DNA of 40,421 nt, taken from positions 72,725-113,145 of the forward strand of contig JBNGIO010006038.1 of the NCBI GenBank assembly GCA_049999805.1, written 5' to 3'. The translations under genes were made by a program, and so were the position numbers. Of the stretch, positions 812 through 38,035 are shown piece after piece (position 1 is the first letter of the stretch; every line of letters starts with the position of its first letter). The notes beneath the pieces are model-generated. The model worked only from the letters and a program-made list of their open reading frames with translations. It did not search any database and was not told where the DNA came from. The DNA is from Folioceros fuciformis. Its lineage: Eukaryota.

Positions 812-3795
812 TTAGACACAAGGAAGCTTTGAGAAAGCCAGGCGAATGGTGGACCCGTTGAAGTTACCAGCATGCTTGCAGACGAGGGCCTCAGTGGCCT
901 GCTCCTCGGTTTCGAACTGGACCAGTGCCTGCTTCTTGCCATTGGACTCGAACACTTTAGCATTCAGGATCGAACCATGCACAGCAAGATGCTGTGTTAT
1001 CTCCTCCACACTCACATCGGGTGGCAGGCTTGATACATGGATCATTTTCGTGGGAGCACAACAGTACCGATAGTTCTTCGCAGCATTGCGATTGAAGCGG
1101 TTCAGATTCGATGTCGAATAGTCATGAGTGTCTGGAGACGGGTTGATTTGGGAGTGTTTGGAGAAATTCACATCCATCCGTTTGCCGAAAAGAGTCACAC
1201 CCTACAAGTCCACCCATCAAATTATTAGCTTCCTTCCGGCTCTCCAAACAAACAGCTCTCAAATAACACAAACAAGACCGTCGCACAGACCTTGAGATAA
1301 GTGAACGCCAGCTCGGATTGAAACCCATCACCCATCTGTATGAGGGCGTGGTCAGGCTTGTTGTGGAGAAGTTTGATGCGCATGATGTTCCCATAGTTCG
1401 AGAAGAGATTGAAAAGCTTGTCGGCGTCCAATTTCTGAAACACCACCAATTTAAAGTCAATGACGTGCGCACACCACCAACTTCATCCCATGTTCTACGG
1501 AACAAGCTATGCAAAGACCACACGTACTTCAGGATTCAGATTCGAAACAAGAAGTGTGCTTCGATCATTTGTGCCTGTAATGCCAGCCGGAAGAACCCCT
1601 CCAAAAGCAGCAGCGGCAGCGGCTGCTGCAGCATTCCCCATCGGAACCTGGAGGCCAGACACCTCATAATCAGACTTGCCAAAGGGAGCTTGCGCGAACA
1701 CGTGATGACTCTATGATGAAGCAAATTACCGCTAAACTTGCATCTGTTACCTGGTAGGAATTCATGCCAATGCCCTGGGGAGGGCCACCAGACTGCTGAT
1801 AACCGGCTTCATGGCAAAGATGAGTCCCACACAATTGAGTCATTGAAGGCGGGGAAAGCATAACTTCTTGATGCGTGGGTGTTTCCAATAAGGACAATCC
1901 ATTTAAGTGCAGCTAAAAATAAAATATAGCCCCATCAACCAGGAGATGTAACTAAAGAGAATACCTGGCATTCCTGGTCGCGGTCCACCCCCCATGCTGT
2001 AAATATTACCACCCTCACCAAAAAGAGAAGTCTAAGCAATAGAAATCGGGAACCAGTCAGTCCACTTGCGAGTGGAACAGTCACATGAAAAACACAAATG
2101 GCGAAACACTACTTCAGAAAGATGCACACGTACTACCATGACGTTGTTATTCAGAGGATTGCCAACAGGCCGTGATTGTTCAGACGGCAATTGTGCATTT
2201 GTAAAATCCCTGTAGTTTAATAGAGGAGGAGGCATCATTTCCTAGGCACATTGGCATCTCTATGGCTGTTCTTCAATCGAGCAATGAGCACTCATCATGT
2301 GAGGAATGAGAAGAAAAGTACCTGGTCCTCTCATTGTTATAATTAACTTGTAGTTCTTGAAGGCTGGAGACACAAAAAAGGAGAGGAAGATGAGCACTTC
2401 AGACGCCCACGACTAAATGCTGATGAAACGTTGCCAACCCAGGACCTTACTTAGAAAATTGAATGTCCAGGGTACAACAGCCATCGTAAATGTTGCGGCC
2501 CTGTTCCATGAAACAAGTAAACCATAAGATTGTGAAGTACAATGCTGTTATCACCATACAGAACATAGTAAGGTGACAGTCAAAAGGTGACCTACTTGTA
2601 AGGTGCTTCGCGCTTGAGTGGCACTGAGCTGGGACGAATACTGCAGCAATGCTTGCAGTCCTGCAAGGGCAAGTCACATTCACAAAGTCTACAGTTGAGT
2701 CTAATACACAGTCATCCCTGGGCAAAATTGGGCAGAAGCGCATGAAGCAGCCCAAGTTCAGTAGCCTCAGGAGACAGGAGCAGAGTACCGATGTGCCTTA
2801 CTAACCCTGGTCATATAGAAGAAGAGAAAGGCAAGATAGATGTAGAGAAGCAAGAGAGGAGACGAGAGAGAAGCTGACCAGCTGACTTCTGGAACGTGAC
2901 GATCTTCTCGACAAAGCCATGAGGGGAAAACACTTGGTGCAGCACATCCACGGTAATAGGATAGAGCGGGTTGTGAATAGTGATTAAGAGAATTCGATTG
3001 GGCTGCAGTTCCTGAAGAAGGCCCAAATGTAGCCAGCAAAGAAGGAGCCAGGACGACGGAGAAGAGAGGACAGGGGTGAGAGAGAGCGAGTACTAAAGCA
3101 GCCTCCTGGAGGCGAAAAGAGAGCACAGAAGACAGCCAGCATGCGGAGAGAAAGAGTAACCATAAAGTTTGGGAAAGAGTTGAGAGCAAGGGGACGGACA
3201 TTCAACTCAGCTTGGACGCCGGCAAACGCATACCTGGTCATTGCTCTGCCGCCGCGGCTGTCCAGGTTGGTCCATCGTAGTAAGCTCCTGGTGCGACGAG
3301 AACTGCATGTAGACATTCCGGCCCCTGCGAAATTCCACATTTTCACATTTCCGCCCCTCCCATTTCGCCTCCACAACACACCACACCACACCAAGTTTCG
3401 AAACCGCACCTCACGGTCGGCTGCACCGTAGAATAGTACTGCATAACGTTGATTGCGCACTGTATATCCTGCATCTGGAGCAAAGCCTGCAGGACACCGT
3501 ACCCAAACCCACGCGTAAGCTACATACCCTCGGATGGCAGAACCAGGCTAGCTGGGCCAAACACAGCCATGCACCTGATTCTTTGCCCGCAGCATAACTA
3601 CCCTTTGCACCATTCCGAACGACTGCGCCAGTTGCAAGAGATCATGCTGCACAGAAAAGCAGGACGAGGCAGGGGTCAGGCGGCCGCGCCGTCTCAGGAT
3701 GCCAGCATTTGCGCTTTCCTCAGCAAGCCAGGGCTCACCTCGGATATCTCCGGCCCCACGTTTCGTATGTGCAGCACCTTGGACGGCTCAGTCAT
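812..3795 (-). CDS. PTB3: Polypyrimidine tract-binding protein homolog 3 (4 RRMs), 14 exons, ~478 aa
   Basis: Exons 3795-3739, 3646-3575, 3486-3410, 3324-3234, 3011-2879, 2660-2596, 2500-2451, 2363-2322, 2209-2137, 2031-1965, 1806-1751, 1647-1528, 1434-1291, 1201-812; all GT-AG, total 1437 nt in frame. Peptides MTEPSKVLHIRNVG, GRNVYMQFSSHQEL, PNRILLITIH, GRNIYDGCC, GITGTNDRSTLLVSNL, NLNRFNRNAAKNYRYCC match plant PTB3. Confidence 0.95.
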
Positions 3796-6009: not shown

Positions 6010-7783
6010 TCACGCCATCCTTGGAGAGGCGTTTTGCAGAGCATTAAGCATCAGCATGGCACCGAGAAAGTTTACTGCACCCAACTGCCATGCCCAAGAA
6101 TCTCAGAATATACTGATTGGCGATGGCAATGGCAATGGCAATAAACGGAACTGCATTTCCGACAGACTCACCAGAAGAAGAGGGGGCGATATGGCACCTA
6201 TCGAAACAAGCCAGCAGAAACTGAAGAACAAGAACTGCCAATGAAGAACAGAAAGATGCGTCAATGACATGCGTGTCATGCCGCAGTGGCTTTGAAATCG
6301 AAAACGACGTGCAAGCGATGGCTTAAGGCTTACCATCCTCCCCACTACTGTGGACAGGTAGAAAGCATCTGCACCATTCATGCCCTGTACATCACCCAGA
6401 GCAGTGCCGATGTAGTAGACTCCAAAGACCTACAGCCACCACCCCATTTGATCACGTCATTCCTCTGAAGACAGCTGTGCGTTTATTGCAACACAGCACC
6501 TGCCAGAAAGTGCTGTTGTTGCATACCACAGCAAGGATGGCTCCAACTTGAATCCAGCCAACAGAGACGCTGTGAAGGTCAAAGAGAAGACCTGCAATAC
6601 TTCAATCTCGTTATGACAAGTGATGAGCCAAGGATAAGGCAGCCGAACAGGATACTGCGATAGGCTACTCACCAAAGATTTTCTTGGGAAACAGGAGAGT
6701 TGCAAATCCAAGAATTGAGATGTAACACCCTGTGAACAAAGCTATTTGTGCTGGCCTTCGCATTTTGTCCACAGTCCAGCCCTTCTCCAATCTCTGAGTG
6801 CTCCTCATCCTTCCCATTCGTCGTGTTCCAACCATTAGCAGGTCTGCAATGGCTTCTTCGCTCACATTGAACTTGTCAAAGCGCTGTTCTGATGCTGGCC
6901 GAATGCTGCAGTCATGGAGAGGGGAAGCAGGTCATACACCATTCATGCCACCGGAACTCCACCTCCAAAGGGCTCCTGACATCCGAAAGAGAGACGCTAC
7001 ATCAAGGCTTACAAGGAGGTAAAAGGACTGCTGCTTTTACCAAATCACCCCATCCTTTGACAACGATGCCACTTCAGGGTGAGGAGCAACCTCTCCATCG
7101 GGACCAGCTGCCATTTTGTCAGAGATTCGAATCTCGTCAGGCGCCATGCTAAGAGCCACAATGACGGCATTACTATCACCCGACCTCCCGGCATGAGCAT
7201 CTCCCAGAAGCCGACCCAGAACGATCACATCTCCATCTGCCACAACATGACCTCCCCTATTTACATCACCCATGACCTGTTACAGAATAGAAACATGGCA
7301 TTAAAGCCAACAACACAATCAATTGACGAACCAGTAGCGCCATCCTTTGTCTCAGAACCATAAGTCGTGACTTACTACGATAGTGCCTGGATGCTCCACA
7401 AATTCTCCGAACCGAATTGTTCTTCTGATGTACAGGCAAGGAGCCCCTTGAGCTGCTTCTTTGGATTTTTGCTTCTCCTTGGGTGCAGTCACCTGATGAA
7501 GCCAGAACCACGGAAGATCAGGTTTGCCATAAACCTGGAACTCCGGCTTCCTATTCCAGAAGCCCGAGCCTCCTCCTGCTTGCGCCCTCGGAACATGTCT
7601 CTGTTCCGCCATCGTTCTTCTTCCGGACCAAGTCCCCACCGTCTCTCCGCCACACGCATCACTCAACCATGGTCCACTCCTGAGACCTAGAGGCACCTGC
7701 GCACTTCTAATTCTACTGGCGCTACACCCGAATGCGGCCTGATCCAGGCGACACTCGACTGGCAGCGGGAGCTGGGAAGACAT
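6010..7783 (-). CDS. MinC-like protein: putative transit peptide + MinC C-terminal beta-helix domain + C-terminal 4-TM membrane domain, ~391 aa
   Basis: Exons 7783-7376, 7276-7041, 6905-6673, 6591-6527, 6429-6334, 6234-6172, 6084-6010 (1176 nt, in frame, GT-AG). LYIRRTIRFGEFVEHPGTIVVMGDVNRGGHVVADGDVIVLGRLLGDAHAG...AVIVALSMAPDEIRIS...PEVA is the MinC_C signature; start codon choice uncertain (in-frame ATG also at 7918). Confidence 0.85.
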
Positions 7784-8505: not shown

Positions 8506-11500
8506 TCAAGAAGAATTGGTCTCGTATGGATGAGACAGCCAAGGATGTTTCAGTGCCTCAGAGGAGCTTGGACGCTTCTCTGGATTGATCTGTAAAAGGA
8601 AACCGACAAAATTGACAAATCCTTGATCTCCCATACGCAAGCGGTGTGCTAGCGACGTCTTCTTGGGCAAAAGATACTCCAACTGGTCCGTGTCCTGCAG
8701 AGAAGCAGCCGTCTCATGTGACCCCGAGCAGTTCATCAGGGGAAACCCTCTTGCGACCAAGGGGGATGGGACATGGCACACTAAATGCAGTCCCTAAACA
8801 CGAACATTTTCAGGGCATAAAGGAAGTATACTCACCGGATTCCGCTCATACAGAGTGTGATTTCTTGTAAAGTACTTGTGGGTGTCATGTCCTCTAGCAA
8901 GCATATCAGGGTCGAATGGCCCAAGAATACCCACCACTCTTGCAAGCAAAGTCGCAATAGAATCATTCTGGAAAAGTACCTGCATCGACCCACAACTTCA
9001 GGGGGGAATCTAGATGTTTACGTCCGTTGAGTTCTCACCCGATCTATCACAACAGGAAATGGAAGAAAGGGGTGGAACTTACGTTCCCAGAACAAAGCTC
9101 TGCCAGTATGCAGCCCAGAGACCAGATGTCTATCTTCTGGTCATAGGGGAGTCCTATGATGACTTCGGGTGCGCGGTAGGACCGTGACTGCACGTAAGAG
9201 CAAAGATGGTCCGTTTGAAAGCAGCTACTGCCAAGGTCAATCACCTTGACCTCGCAGCGGCTATAGCTCTTGACCAAAATGTTTTCAGGCTTCAAATCGC
9301 AGTGGATGAGACCCAAACCATGAATGAATTCCAGCGCCTCTAGACATTGTCGCGTGATAGACTGCAAATAAGCACAAGGTACAAATTCAACACGTAAGAG
9401 GAGAATACAATGAGAAGCGAATGAAATCAGACATCCACTCCAAATGAGTGATAGTCTGCAGATGAGCGCAAGCTACGACCTCAACATGTAAGAGGCCAAT
9501 ACAATGAGAAGGGATGAAATCAGATATCCACTCCAAATTAACCACGCAAATCCCTACATCAACAGAAAGTATGCTCACCTGCAATCTATGCATTGTAAAA
9601 TATACCTCACCTCCGGACTCCCTATTGTACTTGTGAAACTCATAAAGATTTGCACGCAATAGCTCGCACACAATAAACAGGTGCTCCTGTTCTTGCATTT
9701 CGTTAAAAACTTGCCAAGGCGCTTCCTCTTAATCTCATAGAAACACATGTAATTCACACGAATGTGCAACACTTACTCGGTGATAGAAATAGTCATAGAG
9801 CCGCAGGACATGATACTTGTCAGCAGGATCGTTTTTGTTGATGAACTTGAGGAGCTTGATTTCATCAAGACTCTGATCAAAAAAATCTTTGTTATTCTTA
9901 ATAATCTTCATGCAGACATCCATTCCCGTTTGCAAGTCGTGAGCTTGAATTGCTCTGCTGAAAGCTGCTGCTCCTAAATACTCTGTCACTTGATAGCGCC
10001 CAGCTATCACCGAATTTATAACAACGGGGAACTCCTTGTCTTCCTCGAATCCAGTCCTACAAGACACTTAGCTTATCACTGGGTATTAGATGGTAAAAAG
10101 TTTTCACGACAAAGCATACACAGGCTACAATACCTTCAGTACATCTTTTACACGTTCTGGTGAATGCACCTCAGAATTGCACAAGCAGAAATGTCAAGGG
10201 CATGACACTTGTATGCGCACTCAAGTCTTCAATGGGATGAGTGGGCATCCCAGTGTCATGTCCTTGAACCAGAAAGACCATGCACACCATGCCGCAGCTT
10301 CTGCCTAATCCTGAAAGACCATGAAAAACAAAGACAACAGCTTTTGCAGACAACTCCCTTACTTATTTTTTCGATGCACTATTTTCAGATGAAACGTCTC
10401 AAACTCTTCTTCCTCCAGTTGTGGGTGTTTTTGGAACAACGTTCCAGCTCGAGGAGCCCGGGAGATCTGATGCAGGTCCCCATCCTCGTGCTCAAGCTTT
10501 TCTGTCCTCAGTTTCTCCTGCTCCTCTTGCTTTTTGTCTACAAGCAGTTGCGCATCGCTTTGACCTTGCCTGAGAGTTAGTGATAGCGCTAGATCCAACT
10601 CCAGCTCTTTACCCGGGTCATCCTGTCTCCTATTCTCAGGATCCTGCTCTGCCCCTTGCTCCAGCCTGTCTGTCAAACCCTGTTCACGACCTTGACCGAG
10701 ACTCTTCCTCTGCCTCTGGTCTTGCTCCTGCCGCTCCTCTTCCTTCTGCACTTGCCCCTGCCCAGACCACAGCCGTAGCGGGCCCTGCCCATCCTTTTCC
10801 AGCCCCGGCACCTCACCATGCCCTCGTCCCTGCTCCTCCTCATGCCTCTGAACTTCACCTAACTCTTGCCTTGCTCCGGTGCCTGCCGCTGGCCCCGGGC
10901 CCAGCCGATCTTCACCAGGTCCGTGTCCCGAACCCTGGGCTGTCGCATGCCATGGCCCCGTCTCTTGACCCTGTCCTTGCTCACCTCCAGAAACATCCCT
11001 TGCGTCATCCATATGAGCTTGACCAACCGTAGATAGACTTAAAAGAGCCTCAGTCGTAGAGGCAGCAAGAGGGCCGGACTCCGTGCTCAGCCGCCTCCAT
11101 GAAGCCAACGTGCGATCAGGTGCTATGATACCATCCCCAAAGCTGGTGCTTTGCGTCGTCACAGTTGTCAGGTCCTTCACTGCCCATGGGGAACTCTTCA
11201 AGTCTGCATTCAGCATCACAGTAGTTTCACCGGGTCCACAAGGCGGGGAGAACGAAAACCCTTCAAATCCAGAGGCCTCACCAACTTCTTGCTGGTGCTT
11301 GACCTTCACCGACGGGTCAGCCACAAGTCTTGCCCGCTCTGTCATGCACCACTCATGAACGCATGGTTCCACGCAAACACTGGGAACACTCTCCCCTCCA
11401 TCCAGTGGCGGTCCCACTAGTCTGCCTTGCTCATCAACAGCTTGTGCCTGCGAACTCCTGCTCTTCCAAAGTGCAAACCCGCCAGCCCTGGACCCTCCTG

Positions 11501-12757
11501 CGTCAAAATCCAGGAAACCGTCTCCTCCATTGCTGGACGGCCCGCCGTCATCCCTCACAACATCACCCCTCCTCTCACCCCAGAACTGCACTCCATAACT
11601 ACCCTTCGCAAGGCTCCCGGACACCGGAGGCTCAACCGCGCTGGATCGGAAGTCGTAGAAATCAGAATCCGGCACTGCGACGTGCACTTCACCGCTCTGC
11701 GCATCCGCTTGCTGCACGGTTGTGTCCACCAGATCATCCGGACTGCCAGGCTTCAGACTCTCCACAGCCTCCAGCTTATCCGACTTATTCAAATAATACT
11801 CCTCTCCGGAGAAATACGAGTCGTCCTCCACAAACGACGGATTCTCCAAATCATCCCTCTCATTCTCACTCTCAGGTAGAGCCTGGCTCCCTAGACTGGG
11901 CGTTGCCTGCTCATCCTCACTCGGATAATCCACCTCATGTGTCAGAAACCACTCCTCGTCTACAATAGGCTGTCTGTGATACCCAGGATCATCATCATTC
12001 TCATAACTGTCCGAATTCCAATCTTCGTCCGAAATATCACTCCCAAAATCACTCGGCCCCGCTTCGGCAGTCGCAAACCCTGAAAGCAGCTCCAGCCCGT
12101 TTCCCACAATACCCTGGCTAACTGATGGCCGGCCAATTCTTGCGCCTGCAAATGCAGCACATTCCACGTTAAAAGCAGACACCACCGCAGCCGAGGAAAA
12201 ACAAGCAATCATTTTGTGGCCCAGTCCATACAATGCTTAGCCTTCAATCCCACCTTTCCCTGACCGATGCACAGCACTTCCCGATTGAAAGGGATCATCA
12301 GAGCTGCCTCGCCACTCCATTGCTGCAAACACGAACACAGCTGAGAATTACATGCCTCCCAACGACTTTACAGCAGCCGACAGGGCAGCCTAGCCTGTCT
12401 GACAAGCCATCTGTATACCTGAAGACGCTGTATCCCGGCCAACAGGTACATCCAGAAATGAGCCCAACCCGGAGGCAAACTCTGGTACACTCAACCACGT
12501 GCAAGGGTCCGCTGCTACTGCCCGCTCTTCCATGGAACCAAGGTTGTGCTCCAGCTTGTGACCTGCTGAGTGAAGCTTGAGAGGAGGAAGTTTGGGAAGT
12601 TCTGCAGCAATTTGAGCCAGCGTCTTGTCATTCATCTTTCTCTCGGCCTGATCTCGTTCAATCCTTGGGGACGACTTCCCCCTGGCACAGCATGTTGTTG
12701 CACCACCACACCCACACCCCGCCCTGCTTGCTCCTGCTCTTCCTCCCGCACGCGCAC
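8506..12757 (-). CDS. Plant-specific DYRK-family (DYRKP-type) protein kinase; 5' end uncertain
   Basis: Exons ~12757-12419, 12145-10363, 10056-9777, 9686-9579, 9361-9083, 8979-8836, 8694-8506; motifs [72 protein letters not shown]. Confidence 0.92.
9404..9538 (+). repeat. Imperfect ~41-bp direct repeat in a kinase intron
   Basis: aatacaatgagaag-x-atgaaatcaga(c/t)atccactccaaat at 9404-9445 and 9498-9538. Confidence 0.85.
10194..10267. repeat. Intronic inverted repeat / hairpin
   Basis: tcaagggcatgacact (10194-10209) pairs with agtgtcatgtccttga (10252-10267), one G-T position; inner gggatg...catccc stem. Confidence 0.75.
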
Positions 12758-14243: not shown

Positions 14244-15500
14244 CTTGCTCGCCTACACTTCGTGCTGCACGCGAGGTGCTTGTGAGAGGAATGCGCTGGA
14301 ACAGAGCTAACAATCGAGCACCGTTAGCTGTAACTGAGATTAGTGGTAACGGCCTACGGGCGGCCGGTCAAGAAAGGAAGCGTGTGGAGCCGGCGGGCCG
14401 TGAGTAGCGGAGGATGATTTTGGCTGGTGACTTGGTGGAACTAACCGTGGATATGTGATGTGCATTCATTGTCGCGAGATGTGTCGTCTCTCACATCGCG
14501 CTCCTCTCTTTCTTGTTCTTTATTTCAAGCAAGCTGCTCGCCTGCTTAATAAGCTTCTCGCAATGTTGATTCCAGGTCTCTTGGCTCCATCTGGATGTTC
14601 TGCCTTACAACTCCAGCTTCCTGTGTTTCTGTCGTCATAATTTTGGCTCAGTCTTTCTTGCATTGAGACGTTGTGGAGATGGTCCTGGTAAAAATTCTTG
14701 CCAGCACCGAGAAGCTGGGGCCTTGTTTGCAGTTCTCGTTGCGTCTGAAAGTTCATTTCGTAATGGATCTTTGATCGCTAGTGAAGTGTAAAATTACTTA
14801 CTTTGCAGACGATGTGCGTTTGCAGCGGGCTTGGATGCCCATCTGTGCTCACGGCCTTTGTGTCGTTGCTTGTGCGTTCAGATTAGTTCGCTGGATACGG
14901 AAGATGGTCAACACGGGTGGTCAGAGTGGAAAGATGGTGAAATATAGAAAGCTTGCCCTCACTGTTGGCTTGTCCTCAGAATGATTGATCAGCTGAGCTC
15001 TCCGAATCGTGGTTTCTTGATTGACAAGCGTGTGCTCACTTTGCAGTGGGAGAAGCTTGTTAGTGGACATTGGCGTTGTAAGAACTACTGCATACTACCG
15101 GTATACTGCACCGGCTCCCTGTTGTGATGATGAACCGGTCTTTTTTTCTCATGCAGAATGGTGCTTTGCATAAAGATTATGAACAGCAAAGTCCGCAAGA
15201 CTACATGATCGCGGAGCTGCTGCAGCAGCTGCATTTATCAGTTGTTGGAGTCACTGGCAGTGTAGGGACAGTTACTGTCCAAGAGCGCCTGACAGTTGAG
15301 GGGACGTTCACGAGTGATGAACGAGTAGGCAGACTGTGAAGGGAGGGGGGCCTGCTACCACAATGAATTTTTCCTCGGGTTCAGAATGCCAAGTATCCTG
15401 CAAGTAGATGCGGTGTCAGCTGTGGGACACGAGATTGAAGCTTGCATGGCGTTTTTCCATGTGTGACGGAAGTTGAGCTACTGAGCAATACCTCCATGCC

Positions 15501-16889
15501 ATGGGACGACAGCTGAAATACGAGGACAGGTCACTACGGGAGATCCATGGCACTGCAGCCCCCGGCAGCGACGTCTCTGCATCGGGATCCCCGCGTAGCC
15601 ATAGAAGATCCCACAGCAGCAGCAGCAACAGCAGTAGCCGGAGCAGGACGATGTCACCTCCCAGGAGTCTGCGAGGGTTCGGCAACCTCTGGTCCCCGAG
15701 CCCCAGGCCGGCACAGCCACACCCACAGCCTAAGCCACATGCAGGGACGGGAGCTCCCATAGCCAACGGCAACGGCACATCCATGCGGAGCAGCCGGAAT
15801 GTGAAGCACTTGGCGCCATCGCAGGTGACGATGCTGAAGGAGCTGGGGGAAGCAATGGCCAAGGATCCCAACGGCCTCAGCAACGGCGCGGATACTATAG
15901 TGGGAGTGAGCAACGGAGGGGCTTACACCATCGGGCCTCTGTACCAGGGGGGATATGCGGCGGGTCTACAAAGCTCCCGCGCGGCGGGCGCAGCGACAAG
16001 GGGGTCGGTGCAGGGGCGGAAGATGCCGGTGGTGATGCCGCTCTTCATGCTGGCCAATCTGGCATACTTCATGGCCACCATGTACCTGAACAACTGCCCT
16101 CGCCAGGGACAGGGTCGCGCGTGTGTCGGCAGATTCCTGCACCGGTTCTCGTTCCAGCCGCTTGAGGAGAACCCGCTACTGGGCCCGAGCTCCGGGCGGC
16201 TGGCGGCCATGGGAGCAGTGGGAAGAGAAGGCGGGTGGCGGCTGCTCTCCTCGATCTGGCTGCACGCCGGGCTGCTGCACTTACTCACGACGCTGGCGGG
16301 CCTGGGCCTGGTTGGAGTCCGGCTAGAGCGTGACCTGGGCTATCTCAGCGCCGGGCTGGCGTACGTAGTGGCGGGCGTGGGAGGAAGCCTGCTGTCGGCA
16401 CTGCTCTACAGCGGGGAGGCGGCGGGCGGCGGCTCGGGAGCCTTGCTAGGCGTGCTGGGAGCCACTAGCGCCGAGATAGCCACCAACTGGAGCTACTACC
16501 GGCACAAGCGCAGAGTGCTCGGCTGCTGCGCGCTGCTGCTGGCGGCCTGCGCGTGTGAGGGCGCCATGCCCAACGTGGGCAACTGGTGCCACCTCGGAGG
16601 CTCCGTCACCGGGTTTCTGCTCGCCTTCGTCTTCCTGGTGCGCCCGCACCTGTGGACGCGCCCTGCGAACTCTGGCTACGACCCGGACGACGCCCTCCAC
16701 AGTTCCGGCCCCCACACGCTCGTATGGGCCCTCGCTTTTCTGCTGCTGGTGGGTTTGTGCGCCGGAGCTGTCATAGCGCTGCTGGTGGCAGCTTCTCCCG
16801 CGCGCGCACATTGCCTGCACCACTCTTTTTGCCGACACCTCACCTGCATTCCCACATCCCGCTGGCATTGCAACTATTTTAATAATTGA
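15501..16889 (+). CDS. Rhomboid-like intramembrane serine protease (plant RBL1-7 / secretase-type), single coding exon, 462 aa
   Basis: TMYLNNCP, FSFQPLEENPLLGPSS, WRLLSSIWLHAGLLHL, GGSG with catalytic Ser (16434-16436), NWCHLGG with catalytic His (16590-16592), C-terminal CIPTSRWHC. Confidence 0.92.
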   Translation: MGRQLKYEDRSLREIHGTAAPGSDVSASGSPRSHRRSHSSSSNSSSRSRTMSPPRSLRGFGNLWSPSPRPAQPHPQPKPHAGTGAPIANGNGTSMRSSRNVKHLAPSQVTMLKELGEAMAKDPNGLSNGADTIVGVSNGGAYTIGPLYQGGYAAGLQSSRAAGAATRGSVQGRKMPVVMPLFMLANLAYFMATMYLNNCPRQGQGRACVGRFLHRFSFQPLEENPLLGPSSGRLAAMGAVGREGGWRLLSSIWLHAGLLHLLTTLAGLGLVGVRLERDLGYLSAGLAYVVAGVGGSLLSALLYSGEAAGGGSGALLGVLGATSAEIATNWSYYRHKRRVLGCCALLLAACACEGAMPNVGNWCHLGGSVTGFLLAFVFLVRPHLWTRPANSGYDPDDALHSSGPHTLVWALAFLLLVGLCAGAVIALLVAASPARAHCLHHSFCRHLTCIPTSRWHCNYFNN

Positions 16890-34764: not shown

Positions 34765-37700
34765 ATGGTTGACAGGCAGGAAAGCGTAAAACGTCGATCC
34801 CTCGGAGATGGTCGCAGAGGTCACTGGGGCTTGCGCGTTGTAGATCTGCACAAGTCTGCAACTCCAGGTGGTGACGACGTCAAGCGTGCCCGTCCTCTTC
34901 TCCCAACAATGCCCTCCACGGACAATGAGGCCCCTCACGAGTATAACCTGTTCCCTGTGGAGGATATCGTGCAATGTCCCCTTCCTGGATACGTGGCCCC
35001 TGCCTCTGTGGCTTTCAGTCCGGACGACCGATTGATATCCTTTCTCTTCAGCCCCGACGGCACTCTGAGCAGGAAAATTTTCGCCTTCGACCCAGCCACC
35101 AGGCAGCAGCACCTGCTGGTGAGTCCCCCAGGAGGCGGCGTGGATGAGGGCAATTTGTCTACAGCTGAGAAACTGAGGCGTGAGAGACTACGGGAGCGGG
35201 GTCTGGGTGTCACCAGATATGAGTGGGCCAAGGGAAGCGCTTCCTCCCGGCTCATGGTGCCTCTCCCTGGCGGAGTAAGTTGCTTGGGGCTTGTCTGATC
35301 TGATCTCGTCCCGCCTGTAGGCTTTACTTACTTGATCGAGGACGATGCGATGGTGGGATTTCCTTGAAATCAAAATCCACATTATGGTGTGCAGCACGTG
35401 GGAGCCTGATATGAATCTTCGCCTTGGCAGATCTACGTACAAGATGGGCCTGGATCAGAGTTACGGCTGAGAATTGCAAGCACGTCTGGGGCTCCCATTT
35501 TGGATCCGCAACTCTCGCCGGATGGGAATTATCTGGCCTATGTCCATGAGGGTGAGATTTATGTCCTTCCCATCACCTCTGGTGACCCAGCACGCGTGAC
35601 ATCTGGAGCCTCCGCAACAGGCAAGGTAAGAGCCAGGGATGGTGTTTGAGTTGCCGTTGCTCTTAAGCTTTGCAGTGCAATGCTGCCCAACTCGCACAGC
35701 TCTGGGGTCTGAACATGAGTTCCATCATGGCATGCTGTGTAAAGAAGAGGTTGTGTGCCTTTTGCTGCAGGAGTTGAAAGCCTTGAACATTCTGTCCTGC
35801 TAAATGGTAAAAAGTTACCTGTCCTGATGCATCAACCCCTTGGGTTATTATGCAAAATGACAATGACCGGGTTGTTGCATTGGCTGTGGGGGCTTGGTAG
35901 GTGCAGATTGTTGTAGTGGCATGCGCACTGTGTTCACAGTTTCGCGGTTGTGTGGGTGATAAAAGTGCATCCATTTTCTGTGCGCCAAACGTAACAAGTA
36001 TCTGACTGGCCGTATGGGCGTGCTGCAGACACATGGACTCGCTGAGTACATTGCTCAGGTATCATCTGTTTCCGTGTGCTTTTGAAAATTCCCGGCAACT
36101 CTCTGTGCTGGGCTTTACTAAGTAGGCAGGATGGCTGTGGTTGGTATACACCAGGAAGAAATGGAGAGGAGAACTGGATTTTGGTGGTCACCTGATAGCA
36201 AGTCCATAGCCTTTGCTGAAGTGGATGATTCAGGAATCCCACCTTTTCGGATCATGCACCAAGGGAAGTCTGCAGTTGGGAGCGAGGCGCAAGAGGATCA
36301 TGCCTACCCTTTTGCAGGCCATGCCAATGTTATAGTACGTCTTGGGATTGTGTCTGCAACCGGAGATGATGCTGGTGGGGAGGTCACATGGGTAGACCTG
36401 AATTGTGGACTCGACGGCCAAGAACATGAGGAGGAGGAATATTTAGCACGTGTTGCATGGATGCCAGATGGATCACTCACAGCTCAAGTGCAAAGCCGAG
36501 ATCAAACCAAGTTGAAGCTACTTAAATTTCACCGTACCACTGGAAAGCGGCAAGTCCTCCTCGTTGAAGAAAATGATGTGTGGGTGAATCTGCATGACTG
36601 CTTCACTCCTCTTCAAAAAGGTTCAGGAAGACTTGCTGGGGGTTTCATATGGGCCAGTGAAAGATCAGGGTTTCGCCACTTATACCTTCACGATGGCGCA
36701 GGGAACTGTCTGGGTGCACTGACAGAAGGTGATTGGCTAGTAGAGCAGGTAGCTGGCGTGGATGAGAATGGAGGGATCATCTACTTCACAGGAACTCTAG
36801 ACAGCCCCTTGGAAACTCATCTCTATTGTGCTAAGTTGTTTCCTGACTTCAACCTGCCTTTGCCGCCTCCTAAAAAATTGACCCAGGGAAAGGGTCGACA
36901 CCTTGTTGTCCTGGATCACCAGATGGAGAAGTTTGTGGACGTCCATGATTCTCTGGACACCCCACCTCGTGTTATGCTGTGCTCTTTGGCAAATGGGGAG
37001 GTTATTGCACCAGTTTACGAGCAGCCAGCTCCGACGCCCCGAGCCCGGAGGTTACAGTTGGCAGCGCCTGAACTTGTGCAGATAACTGTCGCTGATGGCA
37101 CCACCTTGTATGGAGCTCTTTACAAGCCTGATGTCAACCAGTATGGTCCCCCGCCATACAGGACTGTTGTCAGTGTCTATGGCGGCCCAAATGTGCAAAC
37201 TGTGTGCAACTCCTGGGTGAACACTGTAGACATGAGAGCACAGTATCTCCGCAGCAAGGGTCTTCTCGTGTGGAAGGCAAGGCGCCCAGGCTTGTCGTCT
37301 TTTTCTGACTTTCTGTTGTCGGAAGTTGGTGCTTTTTCTGTGGCAAATGTTACGTGAGACAGCTAGCTGGGGATAGTAGTGCATCCATGATTGTCATGGC
37401 CGAACTCATCTCTTTTCTGCAGTTTGGCATCAGTTTACCATCTCAGTGGAACGTCTGAGTTATGTTTTCGTCTGTCGTTGCAGCTTGACAACAGAGGAAG
37501 TGCACGGCGCGGGATTCAATTTGAAGGTGCAATAAAAAACAACATGGGCGGAATCGATGTGGAGGACCAAGAAGCGGGTGTGCAATGGCTGCTACGAGAA
37601 GGCTTTGCTAAAGTGGGTCAGGTAGGAATCTACGGCTGGAGCTATGGTGGTTACATGGCTGCCATGTCCCTAGCTCGTTGCCCAGATCTATACAGGTGTT

Positions 37701-38035
37701 CTGTAGCCGGTGCTCCTGTCACTGCATGGGATGGATACGACACTCATTACACAGAGAAATACCTGGGAACTCCAGCAAAGAACCCTCAGGTTTTTGAGTC
37801 TACTTCTGTTATGTACCACATACACAGAATGCAAGGAAAACTGCTGCTTGTCCATGGTATGATAGACGAGAATGTGCATTTCAGGCATACTGCGAGGCTC
37901 ATCAACGCCCTCACAGCAGCAGGAAAAGAGTATGAGCTGCTGCTTTTTCCAGACGAGAGGCATATGCCAAGAGGTCTGCGAGATAGAATGTACATGGAGG
38001 AGCGGATTTGTGGGTTTCTTGATAGGAATTTATAG
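34765..38035 (+). CDS. Dipeptidyl peptidase IV / DPP8-9-like S9B serine peptidase
   Basis: Exons 34765-35274, 35431-35625, 36029-36058, 36155-37276, 37484-38035; [42 protein letters not shown] (Ser), DENVH (Asp), ERH (His); start could alternatively be ATG at 34909. Confidence 0.93.

Follow-up and report, generated by a model that had tools for sequence, protein, structure and literature searches.

A MinC C-terminal domain joined to a predicted four-helix membrane module in a nuclear gene of Folioceros fuciformis and its green-lineage orthologues

We analysed a 40,421-nt stretch of the Folioceros fuciformis genome (assembly GCA_049999805.1, contig JBNGIO010006038.1, positions 72,725 to 113,145 of the forward strand; hereafter the window). 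On its minus strand lies a seven-exon gene that combines the C-terminal beta-helix domain of the bacterial protein MinC (MinC_C) with a module of four predicted transmembrane (TM) helices (4TM). Here we describe the gene, trace both of its domains through the green lineage and through bacteria, and consider what a membrane-bound MinC_C might do in a plastid.

Results

Structure of the MinC-like gene

Seven exons spanning 7783-6010 (Table 1) splice to 1176 nt, equal to 391 codons plus TGA, and the six introns separating them are all GT-AG, with lengths of 99, 135, 81, 97, 99 and 87 nt. A preliminary description, made from the letters of the window, had given the same coordinates, the same seven in-frame exons and the same length of 391 aa, and all were recovered when recomputed. 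The four hydrophobic segments that it quoted are found in exons 3-7, both by Kyte-Doolittle hydropathy and by match to a hidden Markov model (HMM) of the 4TM domain; 19-residue windows scoring above 1.5 start at residues 267-278, 298-310 and 337-366 of the spliced model. Translation may start at ATG 7783 or at the in-frame ATG 7918. The last intron of the gene holds a hexamer microsatellite (4.2 copies of TGGCAA, window 6118-6142).

When the small exons are aligned singly by BLASTP, exons 3-6 fall contiguously on moss protein P0165: exon 3 on residues 238-279 (E 2e-11; 4TM HMM positions 1-28), exon 4 on residues 281-301 (16/21 identical), exon 5 on residues 302-333 (24/32 identical) and exon 6 on residues 334-354 (14/21 identical). 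Exon 7 gives no BLASTP alignment to P0165, and is identical at 11 of 16 positions to residues 372-387 of Calypogeia P0007.

The junction that carries the fusion

The reading frame of exon 2 runs on to a TGG TAA that overlaps the GT donor of intron 2, so the fusion depends on the 7041->6905 splice. Across this junction, the residues after 'DG' match without a gap the I-x-[IVL]-x-P-A strand of the orthologues and of cyanobacterial MinC, a strand of MinC_C that the unspliced reading would truncate. Scored with an HMM built from foreign 4TM domains (n=11, window excluded), the spliced model reaches 179 bits (E 1.7e-57), with HMM positions 1-121 of 126 aligned. The same HMM matches five exon-bearing six-frame pieces of the window in exon order, and none of the other pieces falls below E 2.6 (1514 pieces in total). 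Every column that is invariant in the foreign 4TM alignment has the same residue in the window (27/27, including TG.YI, the FD loop, GW, FY, GR and the N in TM4). Judged by these sequence comparisons, the agreement of the 4TM profile with the spliced exons is far beyond chance. An alternative donor 8 nt upstream (GT 7048-7047), also in frame, was rejected; its use would remove three residues and interrupt the otherwise gapless alignment with the orthologues.

The preliminary description had proposed one gene in which MinC_C is fused to a 4-TM domain, and the foreign HMM, the colinear orthologues and the gapless junction all support that proposal. We are confident on this evidence that the locus is one intact fused nuclear gene, orthologous to the MinC or MinC-like family of the green lineage.

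The MinC_C domain and the region before it

Exon 2 alone matches the Pfam MinC_C family (PF03775) with E 3.1e-20 and 72.5 bits (cut-off 33.2) over profile positions 20-95 of 102; the orthologues match the same family with E 1e-18 to 1e-28. Additionally, it matches chain C of PDB entry 4V02, the MinC C-domain of A. aeolicus (E 2.4e-12), and is 50% identical over 80 residues to the MinC of an Elainellaceae cyanobacterium. The start of the domain is supplied by the final 21 codons of exon 1, and exons 1 and 2 encode MinC_C as had first been read from the letters.

The N-terminal, FtsZ-inhibiting domain of MinC had been called unrecognisable in this gene, and a profile scan agrees: no Pfam family reaches E<=1 on the 203-aa N-terminal frame. 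Orthologue alignment within exon 1 is limited to its last 35-49 residues, and about 100 N-terminal residues show no similarity to the orthologues or to MinC. Orthologues P0007 and P0154 match the full-length MinC models of NCBIfam mainly via their C-terminal halves and below the cut-off in all cases (for TIGR01222, 70.2 and 80.9 bits, respectively, against a cut-off of 95.25). A very divergent remnant of the N-domain could escape such a scan, as the cyanobacterial MinC P0001 likewise shows PF03775 alone in its precomputed domain list.

Distribution and conservation in the green lineage

An exhaustive HMMER search with exon 2 returned 2249 proteins at E<=0.001, and among the best 150, which were inspected, 11 MinC_C representatives continue into a domain homologous to exons 3-7. 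Nine species were named for this group: Calypogeia fissa, Pyramimonas sp., Pycnococcus provasolii, Mesostigma viride, Mesotaenium endlicherianum, Cymbomonas tetramitiformis, Myrmecia bisecta, Diphasiastrum complanatum and Closterium sp. A profile search, which is not a census (6 proteins passed among 8000 candidates scored), added Ceratodon purpureus, Riccia fluitans, Riccia sorocarpa and Marchantia polymorpha. The order MinC_C-linker-4TM is thus found in 13 named green-lineage species, comprising green algae, mosses, liverworts and a lycophyte, and one of these proteins (Pyramimonas P0154, 382 aa) is derived from an MMETSP transcript. Word-index searches with single exons had returned one cyanobacterial MinC for exon 2 and nothing for exon 3; it was the exhaustive HMMER search that revealed the family. 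Among named hits the family is restricted to the green lineage. Thus, the fusion put forward in the preliminary description is real, and what does not stand is any idea that it is peculiar to this genome: it is the standard architecture of green-lineage 'MinC' or 'MinC-like' proteins. The orthologues are already public as 'MinC' or 'hypothetical protein', with the Marchantia and Pycnococcus entries bearing the name MinC.

Conservation is uneven along the chain. Averaged over all pairs of 11 green proteins, identity is 0.15 in the N-terminus, 0.44 in MinC_C, 0.09 in the linker and 0.54 in the 4TM; the corresponding values among five land-plant-type sequences are 0.15, 0.43, 0.08 and 0.65. These figures include the window and omit Closterium (a visibly mis-modelled duplication), Riccia sorocarpa and an N-truncated Marchantia model. 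By this measure the 4TM is the best-conserved part of the protein.

A tree of MinC_C (38 sequences, 103 columns) unites the 11 green sequences with support 0.91, and within this clade the window joins moss, liverworts and the lycophyte (0.79), with Mesotaenium next (0.83). The window groups with moss, liverwort and lycophyte sequences in the 4TM tree as well, in keeping with its first reading as plant nuclear DNA. The near named bacterial MinC_C matches include sequences from Elainellaceae, Gloeomargarita and Microcoleaceae, and also from Firmicutes and Anaerolineales.

A single locus of Diphasiastrum complanatum is annotated with seven isoforms, 301-399 aa long (P0038, P0159-P0164); four keep MinC_C and TM1 only, and in two others an internal stretch of the 4TM is missing, so that the membrane module may be modulated by alternative splicing. 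Protein P0004 (123 aa) ends in '...GAIW', and the unspliced exon-2 frame of the window ends in '...GVIW*', which hints at another organism with an intron of the same position and phase. In Closterium P0002 and Mesotaenium P0060, the beta-helix contains long insertions or MinC_C turns in duplicate, which probably reflect errors in the gene models or true expansion of repeats.

Bacterial relatives of the membrane module

No Pfam family matches the 4TM below E 0.01, whether the query is each small exon or the 4TM domain from 11 green proteins and 7 bacterial ones; no NCBIfam family matches it, and its profile matches no PDB sequence at E<=1. The ESM Atlas placed the Calypogeia 4TM with generic small bacterial membrane-protein clusters (0.86-0.90), a result at the level of a lead only. 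A resemblance to small uncharacterised bacterial membrane proteins had been noticed in the preliminary description, and profile comparison bears it out as homology. Aligned with hhalign, the green 4TM and the bacterial family give 99.0% (E 4.8e-18, 116 columns, 27% identity), and the green 4TM HMM matches 8 of 8 bacterial loci, representing 7 distinct genes, with E 1.5e-10 to 2.6e-20.

The bacterial proteins are 121-135 aa long and occur, for example, in Sphingobacteriales, Cytophagales, Burkholderiaceae and one Phormidium metagenome-assembled genome (MAG). They are homologous to the green module over the whole domain, with common invariant G, P, W, R and F positions. Differences are that the bacterial proteins stand alone, are without the GD..G loop insertion and have Asp where green TM4 has Asn. 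They are orphans, covered by no Pfam or NCBIfam family (7 proteins scanned for Pfam). In evenly drawn samples, matches were found in at least 30 of 401 genomes from the phylum of a Sphingobacteriales MAG (Bacteroidota), at least 3 of 401 from the phylum of a Burkholderiaceae MAG and at least 1 of 401 from the cyanobacterial phylum, the family thus being commoner in Bacteroidota than in cyanobacteria; these are lower bounds, as at most 10 first-look candidates were scored per genome, and the Sphingobacteriales and Burkholderiaceae counts include the starting genome.

In a FastTree phylogeny of the 4TM (39 sequences, 118 columns), one clade with support 1.0 holds the 12 green sequences, and its long stem lies outside all of the bacteria sampled. 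The module does not look like an obvious endosymbiont inheritance, and with the stem so placed the tree points to no donor lineage. The Phormidium lacuna copy groups with those of Burkholderiaceae. This single cyanobacterial copy (L005:1501-1884, minus strand; L005 / L006) adjoins a Cas12f1-like TNB (TnpB-type) open reading frame (ORF), and this setting and the grouping together suggest recent transfer of the 4TM gene into that genome. An origin of the 4TM from the cyanobacterial endosymbiont was considered and is unsupported: in the sampling above, 1 of 401 cyanobacterial-phylum genomes gave a match, and that copy lies by the TnpB-like ORF and clusters with Burkholderiaceae.

The neighbourhoods of bacterial 4TM genes, surveyed at 19 loci (7 + 12), contain no recurrent partner and give no lead to a function; DUF4440 lies downstream in 2, and mraZ-rsmH is divergent in 1. 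At that last locus, in a Bacteroidia MAG (L012:2959-3354, plus strand), the 4TM gene is divergent from mraZ and rsmH, the start of a division and cell-wall cluster. As this is 1 of 19 loci, the adjacency is probably coincidence.

The orientation of the module can be predicted from its flank, as the segment before TM1 holds 9 K+R against 2 D+E. By the positive-inside rule, a basic flank lies on the cis side of the membrane, which for a plastid membrane is the stroma. If the rule holds here, the N- and C-termini would both face the stroma from a plastid membrane, and MinC_C with them.

Discussion

The gene structure, the identities of both domains, the conservation of their fusion and the absence of a recognisable MinC N-domain are shown by the sequence comparisons above, and the family is best described as MinC with its C-domain only, built into the membrane via a recruited bacterial 4-TM module. 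Common to the plant protein and to bacterial and cyanobacterial MinC is the homologous C-terminal beta-helix domain (PF03775, 4V02_C). In contrast to bacterial MinC, the plant protein has no recognisable FtsZ-inhibiting N-domain, carries RFGE in place of RSGQ and is encoded by a nuclear, intron-interrupted gene. Additionally, whereas bacterial MinC is soluble and is carried to the membrane by MinD, the plant protein is a predicted integral membrane protein with four conserved hydrophobic helices in frame.

We favour the reading, with a probability of roughly 0.6, that the protein is a remnant of MinC, tethered to a membrane on its stromal side, that acts on Min/FtsZ in the plastid, its function being read from homology. 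The unconserved N-terminal region would be a probable plastid transit peptide, and the MinC part would consist of the C-terminal beta-helix domain only. A flexible basic linker of about 40-50 residues would separate MinC_C from the 4TM, a strongly conserved four-helix domain presumably recruited from the small orphan bacterial membrane-protein family. A MinC_C dimer permanently tethered at the plastid membrane could then act on the Min/FtsZ system: it might serve MinD1 as a receptor in the membrane or as a co-polymer partner, or it might compete for FtsZ at the envelope. Unlike soluble bacterial MinC, such a protein would have no need to ride on MinD. Taken separately, a role in plastid division or at the Z-ring seems to us slightly better than an even bet, and action through MinD is a more tentative proposal, somewhat short of even.

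Several observations count against this reading. In the cited passages of PMC6803595, the C-domain of MinC carries the dimer interface and its RSGQ residues contact helix 7 of MinD; the domain blocks division only jointly with MinD, in that it binds filaments of FtsZ and keeps them from associating laterally. Mapped via the RAGQ of Pyramimonas to the RAGQ of A. aeolicus and the RSGQ of T. maritima and E. coli in PDB alignments, the motif of the window is RFGE, in which R and G are kept, and S and Q changed. Pyramimonas, Cymbomonas, Pycnococcus and Mesostigma have RAGQ or RGGQ, and Myrmecia has RAGT; two zygnematophytes have RQFE, and the liverworts, moss and lycophyte have HNGE, GDAE, ADGE, YSGE or QSGE. 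The last position of the motif is E, not Q, in 8 of 8 streptophytes from Mesotaenium/Closterium upward, and of the 6 other land-plant sequences that have the region, 5 no longer carry its R. MinD binding may be altered or lost in the Folioceros protein and, given the change from RSGQ to RFGE and the E common to streptophytes, is not to be assumed here; in the algal members it is plausible. The anchor or decoy for MinD at a plastid membrane that the preliminary description proposed is accordingly a putative function. Further, support for the 7041->6905 junction comes from homology, not RNA, and retention of intron 2 would yield a soluble 215-aa product. The N-terminus departs from a textbook transit peptide, with 5 acidic residues within its first 70, and the MinC_C tree resolves no cyanobacterial sister group. 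Finally, the 4TM is conserved above MinC_C, to a degree that, by sequence identity, goes beyond the needs of a mere anchor.

That degree of conservation is also the starting point of the main rival, in which the membrane module is the functional end of the protein, as a transporter, sensor or scaffold that descends from the bacterial 4TM family, and MinC_C has merely been co-opted for dimerisation or regulation on the stromal side, taking no MinD-dependent part in division. The 4TM is the most conserved region (0.65 vs 0.43 identity among land-plant-type sequences) and has invariant polar residues within its helices (W, R, N/D), the RSGQ motif is degenerate in land plants, and the bacterial homologues stand alone, with no cell-division context at 18 of the 19 loci with flanking DNA (the exception being L012). 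We nonetheless consider this reading rather unlikely, as MinC_C is clearly constrained (Pfam E 3e-20 here, with similar strength across the orthologues) and has been kept from prasinophytes to lycophytes, chlorophyte and Mesostigma members retain R[AG]GQ, and there is nothing positive for transport in the bacterial family. The locus could also specify two products, a soluble MinC_C of ~215 aa ending at TAA 7039-7037 and a separate membrane-protein gene made of exons 3-7, or the fused form could be a minor isoform. In-frame Met codons in exon 3 upstream of TM1 would permit this, as would the in-frame TGG TAA that overlaps the donor; P0004 ends in a similar way, and some of the 7 annotated Diphasiastrum isoforms are truncated after TM1. 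However, the two parts lie just 135 nt apart and are joined by a good polypyrimidine-AG acceptor, 13 named species share the colinear fusion, one of their proteins being derived from a transcript, and the residues after the junction complete a conserved MinC_C strand without a gap. No eukaryotic stand-alone 4TM occurs among the retrieved proteins, although no search was aimed at stand-alone forms. Together, these points make two products highly improbable.

That the protein belongs to a Min system of the mitochondrion and not of the plastid, a placement proposed for the MinC/MinD-like proteins of some heterokonts, is a very remote prospect. Its precedent is the predicted mitochondrial MinC and MinD of Nannochloropsis, and the same source, in the part cited, takes the MinC/MinD relatives of the green lineage to be presumably cyanobacterial (PMC3499364). 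The best named bacterial matches to our MinC_C include cyanobacteria at 50% identity, and the restriction of the family to the green lineage among named hits likewise speaks against a mitochondrial component.

A membrane-tethered MinC remnant would bear on current accounts of plastid division. In the passages cited here, plants are described as having lost MinC and replaced it with ARC3 (PMC13650779, PMC8227023), a MinC-like sequence of moss is put forward as a possible stand-in for ARC3 (PMC2995336, PMC10030945), and a Chlamydomonas MinC is listed (XP_001692722; PMC4641359, Table 1). These green-lineage 'MinC' or 'MinC-like' genes most likely belong to the same family; the review passages on them mention neither a missing N-domain nor a fused membrane domain. 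Two plastid proteins have proposed roles that overlap with the one suggested here, according to the same portions of PMC13650779 and PMC2995336: ARC3, in negative regulation of plastid Z-rings with MinD1/MinE1, and MCD1, a membrane protein that recruits MinD1. Neither has a sequence relationship to the plant MinC_C-4TM protein. ARC3 is stromal with an FtsZ-like domain, whereas in the plant protein the remnant of MinC and the membrane anchor would share a single polypeptide. No paper describing a membrane-anchored or fused plastid MinC was found in the full-text literature searched. Thus, the MinC_C-4TM fusion has apparently never been described or tested in that literature, and the proteins themselves are public.

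Set against the statement that plants lost MinC, this locus and its 13 named orthologues show that non-seed plants and green algae keep a re-engineered membrane MinC without the classical inhibitory domain. The protein is a candidate for Z-ring placement in the plastids of algae, bryophytes and lycophytes. It is relevant to two questions: why MinC_C can be anchored permanently and still be compatible with MinD and MinE, and what the take-over by ARC3 and MCD1 altered. An uncurated family of bacterial 4-TM proteins also gains its first biological context. A fuller scenario, which we regard as less likely than not, is that the early green lineage rebuilt MinC by dropping the N-domain and joining the MinD-binding half to a 4TM from non-cyanobacterial bacteria, creating an integral envelope protein that patterned MinD and FtsZ from within the membrane. 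It would have persisted from prasinophytes to lycophytes alongside ARC3, with the MinD contact remodelled in land plants (RSGQ to ...E), and its loss in seed plants would mark a hand-over to ARC3/MCD1.

Other features of the window

No Rfam family reaches its gathering score across window positions 1-40421, and a 625-aa open frame at 10359-12236 (minus strand) matches no Pfam family. A protein-kinase exon lies just upstream of the MinC-like gene, and domains recognised elsewhere in the window close Table 1.

Table 1. Coordinates of the MinC-like gene and of other features in the 40,421-nt window
Feature	Position	Strand	Remarks
Possible N-terminal extension, 45 codons	7784..7918	-	Upstream in-frame ATG 7918-7916; frame open from 7984
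Exon 1: unconserved N-terminal region (possible transit peptide) and first 21 MinC_C residues (7438-7376)	7376..7783	-	136 codons from ATG 7783-7781; GTAAGT donor
RFGE at the MinD-contacting RSGQ position of bacterial MinC	7403..7414	-	Column mapping
Exon 2: MinC_C beta-helix core	7041..7276	-	Pfam PF03775, PDB 4V02 chain C, cyanobacterial MinC
TGG TAA, stop of the exon-2 frame under intron 2 retention	7037..7042	-	Donor GT = 7040-7039
Intron 2, 135 nt, GT-AG, phase 2	6906..7040	-	Junction carrying the fusion
Exon 3: last MinC_C strand (6905-6896), unconserved basic linker (6895-6773), TM1 (6754-6689)	6673..6905	-	
Exon 4: FGLLFD loop and TM2 start (GWIQV)	6527..6591	-	HMM positions 26-51
Exon 5: TM2 end, GD..G loop, TM3 start with invariant Arg	6334..6429	-	HMM positions 50-81
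Exon 6: TM3 end, turn, TM4 start	6172..6234	-	HMM positions 68-105
Exon 7: TM4 with invariant Asn, short tail, TGA 6012-6010	6010..6084	-	HMM positions 102-121, E 2e-4
Protein-kinase exon	9047-9472	-	
RRM exon	812-1201	-	
Rhomboid domain in 470-aa open frame	15477-16889	+	
DPPIV_N and Peptidase_S9 pair	36122-38035	+

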